Source: a virus. Taken from it: a stretch of 42,418 nucleotides of DNA. The stretch lies in IMG/VR virus record IMGVR_UViG_3300045988_136292, positions 1-42,418 of that record; one strand, given 5' to 3'. Below are positions 4,278 through 33,443 of this stretch, piece after piece. Numbering within the stretch: the first letter of the stretch is position 1; the number at the start of each line of letters is the position of its first letter. Under the pieces are notes generated by a model that worked only from the letters and a program-made list of their open reading frames with translations, was not told the origin of the DNA and made no database searches. A program made the position numbers and the translations under genes.

Positions 4278-4354
4278 TGTGCAATAATTTATATGACTTT
4301 CTATCCTTTTTTTTTAATACCATCAATTACACGTTTTGGATTACCCGATTTTTA

Positions 4355-4384
4355 AACTAACCTTTATTTTGTATGACAAAAAAA
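4355..4384 (-). promoter_or_regulatory. Conserved late-gene upstream element, copy 1 (coding sense TTTTTGTCATACAAAA-N-GGTTAG)
   Basis: Same element as at 19291, 22669, 23965 and 24789. Lies 78 nt upstream of the holin ATG. Confidence 0.4.
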
Positions 4385-4419
4385 GAGCCTGCCACGGAAA
4401 TTAATCCGCAACAGGCTCT
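4377..4419 (-). terminator. Intrinsic terminator (stem AGAGCCTG/CAGGCTCT) followed by T7 on the - strand
   Basis: Hairpin plus T-run, directly downstream of CDS 4447-4734. Confidence 0.6.
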
Positions 4420-5968: not shown

Positions 5969-6481
5969 CTACTGCCTGAGATATTTTTCCGGGGATTTTT
6001 GAGATTTTATTTGATTTTGTTTTACATTTCTACGTTTAGAATACTTCTGGTTAGCCCTTGTCAGATCCTTGATGATTGTTTCATCAAACACTTCCGAATA
6101 TATCTCTGTTGTCTTGACCGATGTATGCCCCAAGAGTTTTTGGACGGTGGTTATCGGAACGCCTTGATGTACCAACAGAGTAGCACAAGTGTGACGACTT
6201 GTATGGTAGGTGAACTTCTTGTTAATACGCGCCATCCTTCCCAATTTCTGCAATGTCCGATTAGTGTCCGAATTGCAACCTAATGCAGCCAGTTGTTCGA
6301 TGCTGTCGTACTTCCGCATTATGCCCAGTGCCTTTCCGTTAAACAGCAGATATAGCGGAATATTGAGTTTTACGCCTGTTTTGATGCTATTCATAACTAG
6401 CCATTCCTTTCCGTCAACTGTTACGAGATTTTTATAAGTCAATTGTTTAAAATCAGAGAATCTCAATCCGCAATCAACCAA
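5969..6481 (-). pseudogene. Tyrosine recombinase fragment (catalytic domain only; N-terminal arm and core-binding domains missing)
   Basis: The frame opens right after a TAA, 6 codons before the catalytic Arg (CGLRFSD). Retains HTSRHTCAT (HxxR) and LLGHTSVKTTEIY (H..Y). The only start available is a TTG. Confidence 0.7.
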
Positions 6482-7348
6482 TTATCAAGACTGCAATTAT
6501 GGTTTGAAAAATTAGGAATACAAAATGTTACTTATGGAATAGTAATGAGAGCTGGAGGTAGTTTACAGCAGCATTTAGACAGTATTATTAATGATGAGCC
6601 TTACGATGAAAATTCAGCATTTAGAATTTATAGGAATGTAAATGGGGAAACTACATACATACCTAATGTAGATCCAACTGACAGGAGCGGAAATACAACA
6701 ACAAACAGTCAAATAAAATTGTCGGATTGTTTGCAATTCGCGGATTGGGATGTAATAACATTCCAACAAGCAAGCTGGGTAAGTGGTAAATGGGAAACAA
6801 TCGAACCGTATTTGCCTTCTTTGATCAAATATGCGCGTTACTATTGTCCTAATAGTGGTGTAAAGATTGGTTGGCAAATGACTTGGGCGTATGCAAAAGG
6901 GTATGGTGGATTATCTTCTTACAATAATTCACAGGAAGAAATGTTCAATGGAATTGTTCAGTGTGCAAAAAATGTATGTTCTTATTACGGAATAGATTTA
7001 ATTGTTCCTAATGGAGTTGTAGTACAGAATTTAAGAAATGTGCCTGAATCTTTTTGGGGTAGTGACTTAATTTCAATTAAAGGAGCGGAACAATGGACTT
7101 CGGAAACTCCTGCATCTGATTTTACCGATGATGGTTTGCATCCTAATAATATTGCGGAATATTGTACATCAGCAGCATTTATAATGGTTATTTATGGTGC
7201 ATGTTACAATAAATCAATAAGAGGTATAGATTTGGTATTGGATAATATTAGTGGTAATTATGCCAAAATAGCTAGACAATGTGTTTTAAAATCAATTGGA
7301 GATAGATTTAACAAGTCTGACATTGATGTTAGCAAAATTTTAGAATAG
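6443..7348 (+). CDS. SGNH-type hydrolase (DUF4886-like), 5'-truncated with no signal peptide or canonical start
   Basis: Block V is DDGLHPN and GGSLQQH resembles the family. The frame opens at 6401 without an ATG (TTG at 6443, first ATG at 6545). Overlaps the integrase fragment on the opposite strand. Confidence 0.5.
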   Translation: MFKIRESQSAINQLSRLQLWFEKLGIQNVTYGIVMRAGGSLQQHLDSIINDEPYDENSAFRIYRNVNGETTYIPNVDPTDRSGNTTTNSQIKLSDCLQFADWDVITFQQASWVSGKWETIEPYLPSLIKYARYYCPNSGVKIGWQMTWAYAKGYGGLSSYNNSQEEMFNGIVQCAKNVCSYYGIDLIVPNGVVVQNLRNVPESFWGSDLISIKGAEQWTSETPASDFTDDGLHPNNIAEYCTSAAFIMVIYGACYNKSIRGIDLVLDNISGNYAKIARQCVLKSIGDRFNKSDIDVSKILE

Positions 7349-19267: not shown

Positions 19268-19290
19268 AATATTTAAATTTTGATTATACC

Positions 19291-19319
19291 ACTAACCAAA
19301 ATTTTGTATGACAAAAACA
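19291..19319 (-). promoter_or_regulatory. Conserved late-gene upstream element, copy 2
   Basis: Lies 23 nt upstream of the major tail ATG. The stretch 19271-19319 is near-identical to 24771-24817. Confidence 0.45.
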
Positions 19320-19349
19320 AAAAAAGGGATACTGAACTTAGTATCCCTT
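19319..19349 (-). terminator. Intrinsic terminator (10-bp stem AAGGGATACT/AGTATCCCTT) followed by T7 on the - strand
   Basis: Directly downstream of CDS 19356-19730. The T-run merges into late element copy 2. Confidence 0.6.
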
Positions 19350-22060: not shown

Positions 22061-22651
22061 TTAAATATTTAATGATTTCTCAATATTTTGATAATATTCT
22101 TCTGGTATGGTTGCCTTTTTACGCAATTCTTCTTCTGCAATATCTTTGCCGCGCATATAAACAGAAGTCTTGCTGTATGCGGCATTATATACAGGAGAAA
22201 CATCATACAAATTCCCGATCTTAGAAACTGTACGCTTCCAAGTTCCATCGTTTTTTTTCTCCCATGTATCCTTTTCAACATCAAAACAGAAAGAACTGGC
22301 TGATATCTCCCCTCTTCTTATGTTTTCTAACAATTCATCACCTAACGCTGTCTTTGGGGCTTCAAAACGATATTTTAACCCTTTTTCATCCACATTTAAA
22401 GAAAGAGACCCACTTCCATTATTGCTTCTAGCCAAAATACCCCGGCTTTGGGAATGATTCAAAAGCGCAAAAACATCGCTCTTCTCTAATACACCGTCCA
22501 AAGCACCCCGTTCTATAACTTCTTCAAAATATAATCCGTCCGATGGCGTATTAAAAAGAATGGCATACCCCTCAACTGTACGTTTTTCTTCGCTTTCCCC
22601 GGTCACTTGAACCTGATAGGCTGTATTCCTTATCTCTCTTTTTTCGTCCAT
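22061..22651 (-). CDS. HK97-family prohead protease
   Basis: 196 aa. Contains ALLNHSQSRGILARS and lies between the portal and capsid genes. Confidence 0.8.
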   Translation of the reverse strand: MDEKREIRNTAYQVQVTGESEEKRTVEGYAILFNTPSDGLYFEEVIERGALDGVLEKSDVFALLNHSQSRGILARSNNGSGSLSLNVDEKGLKYRFEAPKTALGDELLENIRRGEISASSFCFDVEKDTWEKKNDGTWKRTVSKIGNLYDVSPVYNAAYSKTSVYMRGKDIAEEELRKKATIPEEYYQNIEKSLNI

Positions 22652-22668
22652 TTTTATACTCTTTTACC

Positions 22669-22696
22669 GACTAACCATTTTTTTGTATGACAAAAA
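22669..22696 (-). promoter_or_regulatory. Conserved late-gene upstream element, copy 3
   Basis: Lies 17 nt upstream of the protease ATG. Confidence 0.4.
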
Positions 22697-22704
22697 TTTA
22701 TTTT

Positions 22705-24766: not shown

Positions 24767-24788
24767 AATTTTTAAATTTGATTATACC

Positions 24789-24817
24789 ACTAACCAAAAT
24801 TTTGTATGACAAAAACA
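24789..24817 (-). promoter_or_regulatory. Conserved late-gene upstream element, copy 5
   Basis: Lies 22 nt upstream of the KilA-N ATG. Near-identical to copy 2 over about 47 nt. Confidence 0.45.
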
Positions 24818-24885
24818 GAAAAAAAGAAGACTATTCTCACGAACCATCTTCTTTACATATTAATGAAAACAAACCAAATCTCATT

Positions 24886-26997: not shown

Positions 26998-27064
26998 TCC
27001 GTGTGTGTGAGGAAGGGTCGGGCGAGGTTGGGAAGATCGTTTTCTAGAAAAAATCCCCCCCCCC
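26998..27064. other. GC-rich non-coding segment between HNH and terS, a candidate cos/packaging site
   Basis: CCGTGTGTGTGAGGAAGGGTCGGGCGAGGTTGGGAAGATCG stands out from its AT-rich surroundings. The HNH-terS-terL arrangement is typical of cos phages. Confidence 0.3.
27055..27064. repeat. C10 (G10 on the coding strand) homopolymer tract
   Basis: Counted directly. Abuts the HNH stop codon. Confidence 0.9.
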
Positions 27065-28719: not shown

Positions 28720-29103
28720 TTAATCTCCTTTCTCTTTAATCCGTTCCAGTACATCCTTGTTGGCTTCTAGTATATCATCAAAAGAAGGGATAGGCATCCA
28801 CATGTCACACTCGTAGTCGTTCCAATCCTCAAATTCAAATCCTCCGTCTGTCGCAACGTATGGCGATCTCCCAGGTGAAACAACGATATAGCCACTAACA
28901 ATCGCTCCATTTGATACCATTCTGCAAAGGACAAGCTTATTTGGCTCAGGCAACCGTTCCTTAACACTTATCCAAGGAGATTGCTTCGACTGCCATTCGG
29001 CACCAGAAATAAAGTCAACAATGCAGTATGGTTCACAATGAAGCTGCCTGTTTCTGCAATCATTGGAATATTTTTTTGCTGCTTCTTCTACTGTCTGTTT
29101 CAT
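28720..29103 (-). CDS. DUF551-like protein
   Basis: WISVKERLPEPNKLVLC is typical of DUF551. Confidence 0.6.
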   Translation of the reverse strand: MKQTVEEAAKKYSNDCRNRQLHCEPYCIVDFISGAEWQSKQSPWISVKERLPEPNKLVLCRMVSNGAIVSGYIVVSPGRSPYVATDGGFEFEDWNDYECDMWMPIPSFDDILEANKDVLERIKEKGD

Positions 29104-29119: not shown

Positions 29120-29409
29120 TCAGACTTGTACGGCTGGTTTGCTCTGCTCGCAAAGTGCTACCCGACTGCCGAAACGTATCAGTTTGGGCAAGTGGGTGTC
29201 AAGCTCATGACAGGGGAAACGTACTGTCCATATTTTTTACCCTGCCCGCAGACCTGTTCGCTGACGGGAATGTTCAAAACTCTGGATGCGACAGTGGCAT
29301 CATTCGCATACAGTTCCCAAAAGTCTTCGTTTCGAAAAATTAACAGGTAGTCCGGATGCTTCCCTTTTATATTGTGGTATTGATGTTCCATTACATTTGA
29401 TTGCTCCAT
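29120..29409 (-). pseudogene. Stand-alone MutS domain I (mismatch-binding domain) homologue, interrupted by a -1 frameshift at an A6 run
   Basis: Frame 0 (29179-29409) reads MEHQYHNIKGKHPDYLLIFRNEDFWELYANDATVASRVLNIPVSEQVCGQGKK. The -1 frame continues IWTVRFPCHELDTHLPKLIRFGSRVALCEQSKPAVQV to a stop at 29120. The joined product aligns without gaps to MutS residues about 10-95, including the Phe-x-Glu motif (FWE). Confidence 0.6.
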
Positions 29410-29449: not shown

Positions 29450-30103
29450 TTAATGATAGATACCATACTTTCCCCATCCCTCTTGTTGGCAGTTTATTGG
29501 TAGGTAGAGCCCTGTATAAACAAGATAACGATAGAACGTCCCCTTTGATACTTTCAATCTTTTGGCTATAATGGTTTTTTCAGATCCTTTAGCCAGTTCT
29601 TTTACAATATAATCGTGCTTGTTGGCACATTTGGGATTAAGTCTACAACGAAAGCCACGACAATGTCCGAGCATTGCCCCTTCTGCTTTTTTTCTCGCTA
29701 ACGCCTCTTTTGTACGTTGACTGATAAGATTGCGTTCAATCTCAGCTGACAATCCGAAAGCAAAGGCAAGGACTTTACTTTGTATATCTTCCCCAAGTCT
29801 ATAGTTATCTTTAATTGTCCATACCTTACATTCTTTTGTCATACAGATATTCAAGATTTCCATAATCATAAAAAGATTACGTCCAAGACGTGAAAGTTCA
29901 CTACAGATGATAATATCATCTTTGCATACTTTACGTAGTAAACGTCCAAGCTGTCGTTTTGTGTAATTTTTCGTTCCACTGATAGTTTCTTCTATCCAAT
30001 CGTCAATCACCAACTTATTACGTTCACAGAAATTGTTTATCTCAAAACGCTGGTTCTCTACAGTCTGTTTGTCACTGCTTACTCTAATATATCCGTAAAT
30101 CAT
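29450..30103 (-). CDS. Serine recombinase of the resolvase/invertase type, Mpi-family-like
   Basis: MIYGYIRVSSDKQTVENQRFEI contains the catalytic Ser motif. Also has SELSRLGRN, LSAEIERNLISQRTKEAL and a C-terminal HTH (IIAKRLKVSKGTFYRYL). The ORF frame extends to 30187, and 30103 was chosen as the start. Confidence 0.8.
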   Translation of the reverse strand: MIYGYIRVSSDKQTVENQRFEINNFCERNKLVIDDWIEETISGTKNYTKRQLGRLLRKVCKDDIIICSELSRLGRNLFMIMEILNICMTKECKVWTIKDNYRLGEDIQSKVLAFAFGLSAEIERNLISQRTKEALARKKAEGAMLGHCRGFRCRLNPKCANKHDYIVKELAKGSEKTIIAKRLKVSKGTFYRYLVYTGLYLPINCQQEGWGKYGIYH

Positions 30104-30179: not shown

Positions 30180-30632
30180 TTATTCAACTATCATCCAATC
30201 GTTAGCAAGCATATCCGTCTGTGATGCAAGCCAACCATTTACAACGGCGCCATCGGCAGCTTTCATACATAAGTATGCAGTAAACTTGATTCTATCAGTT
30301 TCCGAATCTCCATGATTGTTGGCAACCCATCTTTTGAATGATTCGGGAAGTGATTTAACCTGATTCACAATCATGTTAGTCGGCAGACTATCTTCAGGTC
30401 GCATAAATATAAACATTCCCTTACCATTCCATCCTTTACGAGCAACAAGATGTCCCCGTTTAAGTGATTCCAGTGCCTGCCCAAATGTTCCTGTTTCTTC
30501 TCCCAATAATTCACCTTTCATTGCTCCAAGAACATAAGCTGTTTGAATAAGCCCTTCACACTCTTTTGCTTCTTTGTTACGCGATACTACACTTGCTGCA
30601 TATTCGGCAGCCTTTTCATCTAATGTTTTCAT
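30180..30632 (-). CDS. DUF2829-domain protein (Tad2-like candidate anti-Thoeris sponge)
   Basis: Contains FGQALESLKRGHLVARKGWNGKGMFIFM and NGWLASQTDMLANDWMIVE, hallmark DUF2829 motifs. Has an N-terminal extension of about 45 aa. Confidence 0.6.
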   Translation of the reverse strand: MKTLDEKAAEYAASVVSRNKEAKECEGLIQTAYVLGAMKGELLGEETGTFGQALESLKRGHLVARKGWNGKGMFIFMRPEDSLPTNMIVNQVKSLPESFKRWVANNHGDSETDRIKFTAYLCMKAADGAVVNGWLASQTDMLANDWMIVE

Positions 30633-32825: not shown

Positions 32826-33443
32826 TTAATCAACCTCTATAATCTGATATCTCCCTTTTTGGATGTAAATCTTATGGTTGTAATAATCCTTGATTACTGC
32901 ATATCCAGACTGGGGCCTAATATTACCTGTTAAATCTTCAACATAAGAATTGTCGTAGGCCTTCACTGTTGCGCTGTCGCAGGCCTCCACTGTTGCGCTG
33001 TCGTAGGCCTCCACTGTTGCGCTGCCGTAGGCCTTCACTGTTGCGCTGCCGTAGGCCTTCACTGTTGCGCTGCCGTAGGCCTTCACTGTTGCGCTGCCGT
33101 AGGCCTTCACTGTTGCGCTGCCGTAGGCCTTCACTGTTGCGCTGCCGTAGGCCTTCACTGTTGCGCTGTCGCAGGCAAAAGATGTCGTTGTTACCTCATG
33201 GTATTTTTGTGTATAGATACCAGCTTCCGCAAGATCTTCTTCAGCAAAATTGTCTTCTAAATATTCTGCATCTACTATTCTTGCTGTTCGTGACACCCAA
33301 GACCAGTTATCAGTAATAGCCTTAAGTATATCAGCTTTGCTTTGACTCCTTAATCCCATCGCATAACCTATTTGACAAGCTCCTGCTTTCTTGGCGCGCA
33401 GTAATAGTTCTTCCTTTATTTCTTCAAATGTTTTCTGTTTCAT
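32826..33443 (-). CDS. Repeat protein with about 10 tandem 8-residue units (SATVKAYG)
   Basis: 205 aa. The N-terminal domain reads KEELLLRAKKAGACQIGY..ITDNWSWV. The rest is 8-aa beta-strand-like repeats encoded by the 24-bp array. Confidence 0.7.
   Translation of the reverse strand: MKQKTFEEIKEELLLRAKKAGACQIGYAMGLRSQSKADILKAITDNWSWVSRTARIVDAEYLEDNFAEEDLAEAGIYTQKYHEVTTTSFACDSATVKAYGSATVKAYGSATVKAYGSATVKAYGSATVKAYGSATVKAYGSATVEAYDSATVEACDSATVKAYDNSYVEDLTGNIRPQSGYAVIKDYYNHKIYIQKGRYQIIEVD
32955..33176. repeat. Tandem 24-bp repeat, 9 full units plus a partial one (unit GTAGGCCTTCACTGTTGCGCTGCC)
   Basis: Counted directly. Five central units (33027-33146) are identical, while the outer units carry 1-3 substitutions. 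The array is in frame within CDS 32826-33443. Confidence 0.95.

Follow-up and report, generated by a model that had tools for sequence, protein, structure and literature searches.

The polyvalent proteins were, when they were described, the sole occurrence of MutS domain I (MutS-I) outside MutS itself (Iyer et al. 2017, PMC5512222). In these proteins, which are encoded by phages and conjugative elements and belong to mobile elements of Bacteroidetes and Firmicutes, the domain is a DNA-binding module that is often found together with ArdC-N. A second group of relatives are the Msl proteins, small MutS-like accessory proteins of DGRs (Wu et al. 2018, PMC5758913), which have also been reported from the DGRs of Bacteroides (Macadangdang et al. 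2024, bioRxiv 10.1101/2024.11.15.621889). Deletion of the host mutS raises DGR retrohoming 5-10-fold (Macadangdang et al. 2024). As host MutS thereby holds back a diversification through heteroduplexes in Bacteroides, there is a rationale for a helper that antagonises MutS, and such an antagonist role becomes testable. Finally, ORF064c of Bacteroides phage B124-14 (YP_005102529.1, NC_016770) is an 81-aa protein consisting of MutS domain I only, annotated as 'putative mismatch repair protein'. In the literature searched, no function was found for ORF064c, and searches aimed at the MutS mismatch-binding domain as a phage-encoded inhibitor and at MutS domain I in phages gave no match.

Here, we analyse a gene of this type in a viral contig of 42,418 nucleotides (IMG/VR record IMGVR_UViG_3300045988_136292), referred to below as the window. 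The features of the locus are listed in Table 1. The gene is interrupted by a one-nucleotide deletion in a run of adenines, and the protein obtained by joining its two frames is referred to as the fused product.

The fused product is most directly comparable to ORF064c of B124-14. The two proteins are 64% identical in an alignment without gaps, also across the junction of the two frames, and the gene immediately upstream of ORF064c encodes a DNA invertase with 91% identity to that of the window. However, ORF064c is an uninterrupted ORF with the sequence GGCCAAACGCTC, lacking the A-run, at the corresponding site, and it ends at RVALCE without the C-terminal 'QSKPAVQV' tail. The Msl proteins are also small homologues of MutS's domain for recognising mismatches, encoded by diversifying or mobile elements, including some in Bacteroides. 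By description, which is the only level at which they were compared, they are longer, 112-283 aa versus 81-96 aa here. We also considered whether the gene is an Msl within a DGR cassette. This was rejected: the window contains no reverse transcriptase (no RVT match in the 20 ORFs scanned), no avd and no TR/VR-like repeat pair, and the genes tabulated for contigs identical or nearly identical to it include no reverse transcriptase either. The polyvalent proteins use the same domain, while in the window it forms a protein of its own, with an invertase gene as its partner. Bacterial MutS, finally, shares the fold of domain I and the F36/E38 motif (E. coli, 1E3M and 3K0S), but the connector, core, clamp, ATPase and dimerisation domains are all absent from the window product. 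This product cannot perform mismatch repair.

Table 1. Features of the mini MutS-I locus and its neighbours in the window.
Feature	Position	Strand	Remark
DUF551 gene	28720..29103	minus	PF04448, E 1.1e-5; immediately downstream of the MutS-I gene
Mini MutS-domain-I gene	29120..29409	minus	96 aa from MEQ; interrupted by a 1-nt deletion
ATG (MEQ...) of the MutS-I gene	29409-29407	minus	
Family-conserved start (MEH) of the MutS-I gene	29391	minus	
Codons for Phe30-Trp31-Glu32	29322-29314	minus	Align to E. coli MutS Phe36-Tyr37-Glu38
A6 homopolymer tract	29238-29233	minus (T6 on plus)	Frameshift site; A7 in intact alleles
ORF as encoded by the A6 allele	29179..29409	minus	59 MutS-I residues and a 17-aa out-of-frame tail YGQYVSPVMSLTPTCPN
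Frame-0 stop TGA	29181-29179	minus	
C-terminal 37 codons of the domain	29120..29232	minus	Open solely in the -1 frame
-1 frame stop TGA	29122-29120	minus	
Mpi-family master DNA invertase (serine recombinase)	29450..30103	minus	217 aa; NF009949, E 1.6e-102, 341.4 bits (cut-off 272)
Tad2-like (Thoeris anti-defence 2-like domain) gene	30180..30632	minus	PF11195, E 2.3e-24; two genes upstream of the MutS-I gene

At the run, the zero frame reads GGT AAA AAA TAT, i.e. T_AAA_AAA. An earlier note on this DNA, made without database searches, proposed that a -1 shift at this point joins the halves of a stand-alone MutS domain I that carries the Phe-x-Glu mismatch-contact motif. Both parts of the proposal are borne out. 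The Pfam model MutS_I (PF01624) matches the fused 96-aa product with an E-value of 2e-21 and 76.7 bits (cut-off 20.6), while the unfused 95-aa ORF reaches 1.4e-11 and 45 bits and covers profile positions 3-56 alone. The fused product aligns to residues 13-96 of E. coli MutS at 37-38% identity, gapless and with the junction included, and the Phe-x-Glu motif is present at the expected place. Residue conservation is seen across an alignment of 21 family members, most of which retain this motif, the exceptions being P0176 (Val) and P0189/P0190 (Asn..Val). In comparisons between members of the family, dN/dS lies at 0.2-0.4 for both halves, the shifted-frame part included, and 0.11-0.34 for the C-terminal 37-codon part. 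These low values show that the -1 frame is truly coding.

Structure prediction, which the earlier note had named as a check, agrees with the profile match. The AlphaFold (AF2) model of the fused product, based on the 21-sequence alignment, has a pLDDT of 85.9; it replaced an earlier, poor model from four sequences (pLDDT 59.5). It superimposes on domain I of E. coli MutS (3k0s_A, 1e3m_A) with a TM-score of 0.81 and an rmsd of 1.9 Å over 89 columns, and the best 50 PDB matches in Foldseek are all domain I of MutS or MSH3. The fused product is thus a stand-alone MutS domain I protein. The domain is not complete, since the match covers positions 3-88 of the 113 in the Pfam model and the last ~25 positions are missing. 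Domain I of E. coli MutS extends to about residue 115. The statement that the product ends exactly at the domain boundary has therefore to be given up. Scores against the NCBIfam MutS equivalogs are far below their cut-offs (74.7 bits versus 480 for NF003810, and 66 versus 641.7 for TIGR01070).

A phage-borne isolated domain I had been thought unusual, but the family is widespread, abundant in phages and prophages of gut Bacteroides, and already annotated. Intact family proteins are 81-96 aa long, contain the core of MutS domain I only and end at RVALCE(Q). A sister gene, P0013, is 76-81% identical to the window product and belongs to a prophage present in 2,682 collection blocks; its named cluster members come from Bacteroides ovatus and it again follows the same 217-aa recombinase. 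In IMG/VR, at least 108 viral contigs carry MutS-I relatives, and these have several architectures: minimal proteins of 81-125 aa, N-terminally extended ones of 150-260 aa, and polyvalent proteins of more than 1700 aa. There are also fusions with a C-terminal MutS-I, with ArdC-N (~810 aa) or ParB-N (~690 aa) as the partner. The contigs with fusions of 670-830 aa are L070, L073, L078 and L094 for the ArdC-N type and L105, L108, L113 and L119 for the ParB-N type. The domain thus also serves as a module of DNA-entry or anti-restriction proteins. The neighbourhoods of distant stand-alone MutS-I genes are enriched in genes for anti-restriction and DNA entry, among them ArdC-N, MPTase-PolyVal, ArdA, PcfK, PcfM, RadC and methylases, and of the 127 proteins encoded near distant phage MutS-I genes, only one is a reverse transcriptase. 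BFVD also contains small viral 'MutS domain I' proteins. Numerous short MutS-I proteins also turned up among 1.84 billion representative proteins, but as many of them may be contig-edge fragments of full-length MutS, this search was left out of the counts of stand-alone genes.

Uninterrupted versions of the gene, for which the earlier note had suggested a search, exist both in relatives such as B124-14 and as otherwise identical alleles. P0001, an intact protein of 115 aa in the protein-identity index, is 100% identical to the fused product, and the two contigs that carry it (L003, L004) agree with the window throughout ~380 nt but for a run of A7 instead of A6. Contig L134 also has A7. The intact A7 ORF is 96-115 aa long and encodes P0006 or P0001. 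Truncated products are recorded as P0010, the exact product of the ORF in the window (44 index blocks), P0011 (10 contigs), P0012 (2 contigs) and P0003 (1 contig), and intact ones as P0006 (63 index blocks), P0001 and P0007-P0009, which gives index totals of ~57 for A6 versus ~68 for A7, counted in index blocks or contigs. Among the fetched copies, 20 have A6 and 15 have A7 (n=35). Exact patterns of the A-run context had no match in IMG/VR viral contigs or in the GTDB species-representative genomes, a protein-based scan of genome contigs had none either, and a scan of JGI metagenomes for the A-run context found a single A7 contig; the allele counts therefore rest on the protein-identity index.

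It could be argued that the A6 in the window is a sequencing or assembly error that hides a true A7. Some sequencing platforms tend to misread homopolymers, and the window is a single base away from intact alleles. However, A6 is present in contigs from no fewer than 19 different samples of unrelated studies (ENA, Logan, JGI) and from different assemblers, and A6 is linked to the haplotype described below, so that a local error is for practical purposes excluded. Further, contig L008 matches the window at 100% identity over 20 kb, though it may be the same assembly. The other long ORFs and A7 runs of the window are intact, including the 1033-aa tape-measure ORF that had been cited earlier in this context. 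We find an error hardly conceivable.

The 1029-nt module of invertase and MutS-I was aligned from the 35 copies. The invertase gene contains 34 variable sites, which define three haplotypes, while the MutS-I ORF contains three singleton substitutions and the difference in run length, and nothing more. Haplotype A, the type of the window, has A6 in 17 copies (14 full-length and three partial) and A7 in one (L035). In haplotype B, A6 is found in three copies and A7 in two, and in haplotype C all copies have A7. Within haplotype B, ~3.8 kb could be compared between two A7 contigs (L021, L022) and three A6 contigs (L006, L010, L013). The only differences are the A-run indel, a 3-nt in-frame indel present in L006 and L013, and a single SNP that L010 alone carries. 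From these near-identical backgrounds, the change at the run must be very recent. As the MutS-I ORF is nearly free of substitutions in all lineages, its undecayed 3' part gives no age for the break.

The only A7 copy of haplotype A, L035, shows 99.8% identity with the window along 14 kb, with a cluster of private SNPs around the MutS-I gene. A reversion from A6 to A7 was considered for this contig and rejected, as the SNP cluster points to recombination; its A7 was probably acquired in this way. The A6 allele is carried by three or more phage backbones that differ in their terminases, which shows that the cassette recombines between phages. Independent deletions and recombinational spread could both have placed A6 on several backbones, and from the alignments they are not fully separable.

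The invertase gene contains an A7 run of its own (29687-29693), which does not change length in any copy that covers it. This suggests that a length change is tolerated in the MutS-I gene, unlike in the invertase.

The reading that we favour, and hold to be probable though by no means certain, is that A6 is a natural and heritable allele, derived from A7 by deletion of one nucleotide, of a small gene that belongs to the accessory genes of temperate Bacteroides phages. Slippage during replication of the A7 tract is the probable origin of the deletion, which is probably inactivating. Translation of the A6 allele ends 17 codons past the run, and its ORF is without strand E58-66, helix H67-79 and strand E83-88 of the modelled fold. 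The product, lacking ~40% of the fold, would most likely be non-functional. As A6 persists at ~45% of the observed copies, and as A6 phages whose backbones are 97-100% identical occur in many cohorts, the gene would be dispensable, or possibly costly, to the phage or the lysogen. Such a frequency of a null allele on at least three backbones is high for a simple neutral loss, and selection or switching could instead be involved.

An alternative to a null allele is that A6 is decoded to full length, either because ribosomes shift by -1 on T_AAA_AAA or because RNA polymerase inserts an additional A, so that two products are made. Slippage of tRNA-Lys on A-runs is an established mechanism, as at A_AAA_AAG of E. 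coli dnaX, and a -1 shift here yields exactly the protein of the A7 allele. However, T_AAA_AAA does not fit the heptamer X_XXY_YYZ, and the 68 nt downstream fold with -13.6 kcal/mol and a z-score of -0.45, 71 of 200 shuffled sequences folding at least as well. For slippage during transcription, A6 is shorter than the runs that give it efficiently. The site is also unconserved, as the genes of B124-14, the cluster-3 prophage and P0004/P0027 are plain ORFs without the A-run, and the otherwise identical A7 alleles require no shift at all. We consider decoding to full length very improbable as the explanation of A6; some full-length protein could still be made from A6 by low-level slippage. The earlier note had taken error, pseudogene and slippage to be inseparable from the sequence alone. 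Of these, local error drops out and programmed frameshifting finds no support. For annotation, the gene should be named a frameshifted allele of mini MutS-I, and be treated neither as a recoding site nor as an assembly error to 'repair'.

The run could also be a contingency switch. Here, A6 and A7 would interconvert reversibly by slipped-strand mispairing, with both states kept by selection, for instance if the intact protein is mutagenic or costly in lysogens and useful in infection or recombination, as it might be. As in contingency loci and dnaX-type sites, a mononucleotide run inside the ORF sets the frame, and in-frame and out-of-frame lengths are both natural, which is one of the marks of a phase-variable locus. 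Both are common, both are found on haplotypes A and B, and the run differs between the near-identical 3.8-kb backgrounds, while the A7 run of the invertase in the same cassette is invariant. Furthermore, length variation among close relatives is seen at another homopolymer as well, the poly-G tract at 27055-27064 (G10/G8). Nevertheless, seven adenines are short for a contingency tract, only two lengths are observed, and the A6/A7 difference comes without a demonstrable direction of change, the sole A7 copy of haplotype A being apparently a recombinant and not a revertant. Unlike in the known loci, the run is 6 or 7 nt, lacks a stimulatory element and is not conserved across the family: the tract is missing in sister lineages, both in B124-14 and in the cluster-3 prophage, which has GQGQTI. 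A reversible switch is therefore a possible, if unlikely, explanation, and we retain the simple deletion allele as the preferred one.

Some further features of the window were recorded. The poly-G tract lies on the minus strand (C on plus), just past the stop of an HNH gene, with the small terminase gene downstream of it. The window and L008 have G10, and L005, L007, L025, L026, L029 and L035 have G8. A tandem array of 24-nt units with ~10 or more copies is located at 32903-33224, inside an ORF at 32826-33443 (minus) with a weak Big_2 match, and its copy number appears to differ between the window and the otherwise identical L008. An intergenic motif, ACTAACC...TTTTGTATGACAAAAA, is repeated four times before structural gene blocks (4337-4390, 19272-19325, 22651-22704 and 24770-24823), two of the copies being 94% alike. 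From its position, it may be a phage promoter or regulatory element. In the tail-fibre region, a 170-aa ORF of the tyrosine-recombinase family (5969-6481, minus) overlaps a convergent DUF4886 ORF (6443-7348, plus), and could be a remnant or a part of a tail-fibre inversion system.

The MutS-I gene lies in an accessory island. The Tad2-like gene marks an accessory or counter-defence region, and relatives differ here by methylases, PAPS reductases and toxin-antitoxin genes. The gene directly upstream of MutS-I, with Pfam domains Resolvase and HTH_7, is the master invertase of the Mpi family, and it is found at this position in every fetched locus of the mini type except the P0027 type, i.e. in the window lineages, B124-14, the cluster-3 prophage (2,682 index blocks), L046 and L050-L068. 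The two genes are separated by 0-45 nt and sometimes overlap. They form a cassette that is shuffled between different phage backbones, and lineages whose MutS-I proteins share only 56-81% identity have invertases that are 90-95% identical. Enzymes of the Mpi family flip the capsule promoters of Bacteroides. No description of a phage-borne Mpi-family invertase paired with a mini MutS-I was found in the literature searched, and no invertible segment was found adjoining the invertase in the window. The loci of the P0027 type (L042-L045) have no Mpi invertase; an uncalled gap of ~840 nt, downstream of ParB and PcfM-like genes, lies upstream of MutS-I instead.

What the intact protein does can be approached from its homology and its context. 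Most likely, it is a bare module that binds mismatched or distorted DNA, the ATPase, clamp, dimerisation and MutL-contact parts being absent. The protein might protect heteroduplexes formed in recombination against host MutS, or it might assist the adjacent invertase. A role as decoy or anti-mismatch-repair factor, as the earlier note had envisaged, is plausible. Without dimerisation, clamp and ATPase, a lone domain I could be a competitor for DNA, yet would be unable to poison MutS dimers.

The pairing of the two genes gives rise to a different proposal, in which the intact protein is an accessory factor of the Mpi-family invertase and not an anti-mismatch-repair factor. By binding the distorted or mismatched crossover, it might influence the choice of site or the direction of inversion of invertible promoters in the host or the phage. 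The adjacency is strict in all mini-type loci that carry the invertase, and the pair moves jointly between backbones. However, the two genes evolve at very different rates, as the identities given above show, and MutS-I genes of the P0027 type do without an invertase. Conversely, the chromosomal Mpi of Hallella (L131) has no MutS-I partner downstream, a comparison that consists of this one locus, since a second ended at a contig edge. In addition, the more distant MutS-I proteins sit among anti-restriction genes, and ~45% of the cassettes pair a broken MutS-I with an intact invertase. An invertase-specific function is thus unlikely.

It can be speculated further that the Mpi invertase and the mini MutS-I together form a phage module, by which the phage would bring in a Bacteroides master invertase of its own and flip the promoters of host surface structures, and in which MutS-I tunes the recombinase or blunts MutS and the A6/A7 run acts as a self-limiting switch. 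We regard this as quite improbable. If it were true, interference with mismatch repair would raise slippage at the gene's own homopolymer and thereby turn the gene off, which could account for the ~45% of copies in the off state. Blunted host MutS would moreover favour homeologous recombination and phage mosaicism.

Independent of the exact mechanism, the common A6 null allele offers natural on/off strains for comparison. The pairing with the invertase hints that temperate phages may tamper with the phase variation of the host capsule, which governs phage susceptibility.
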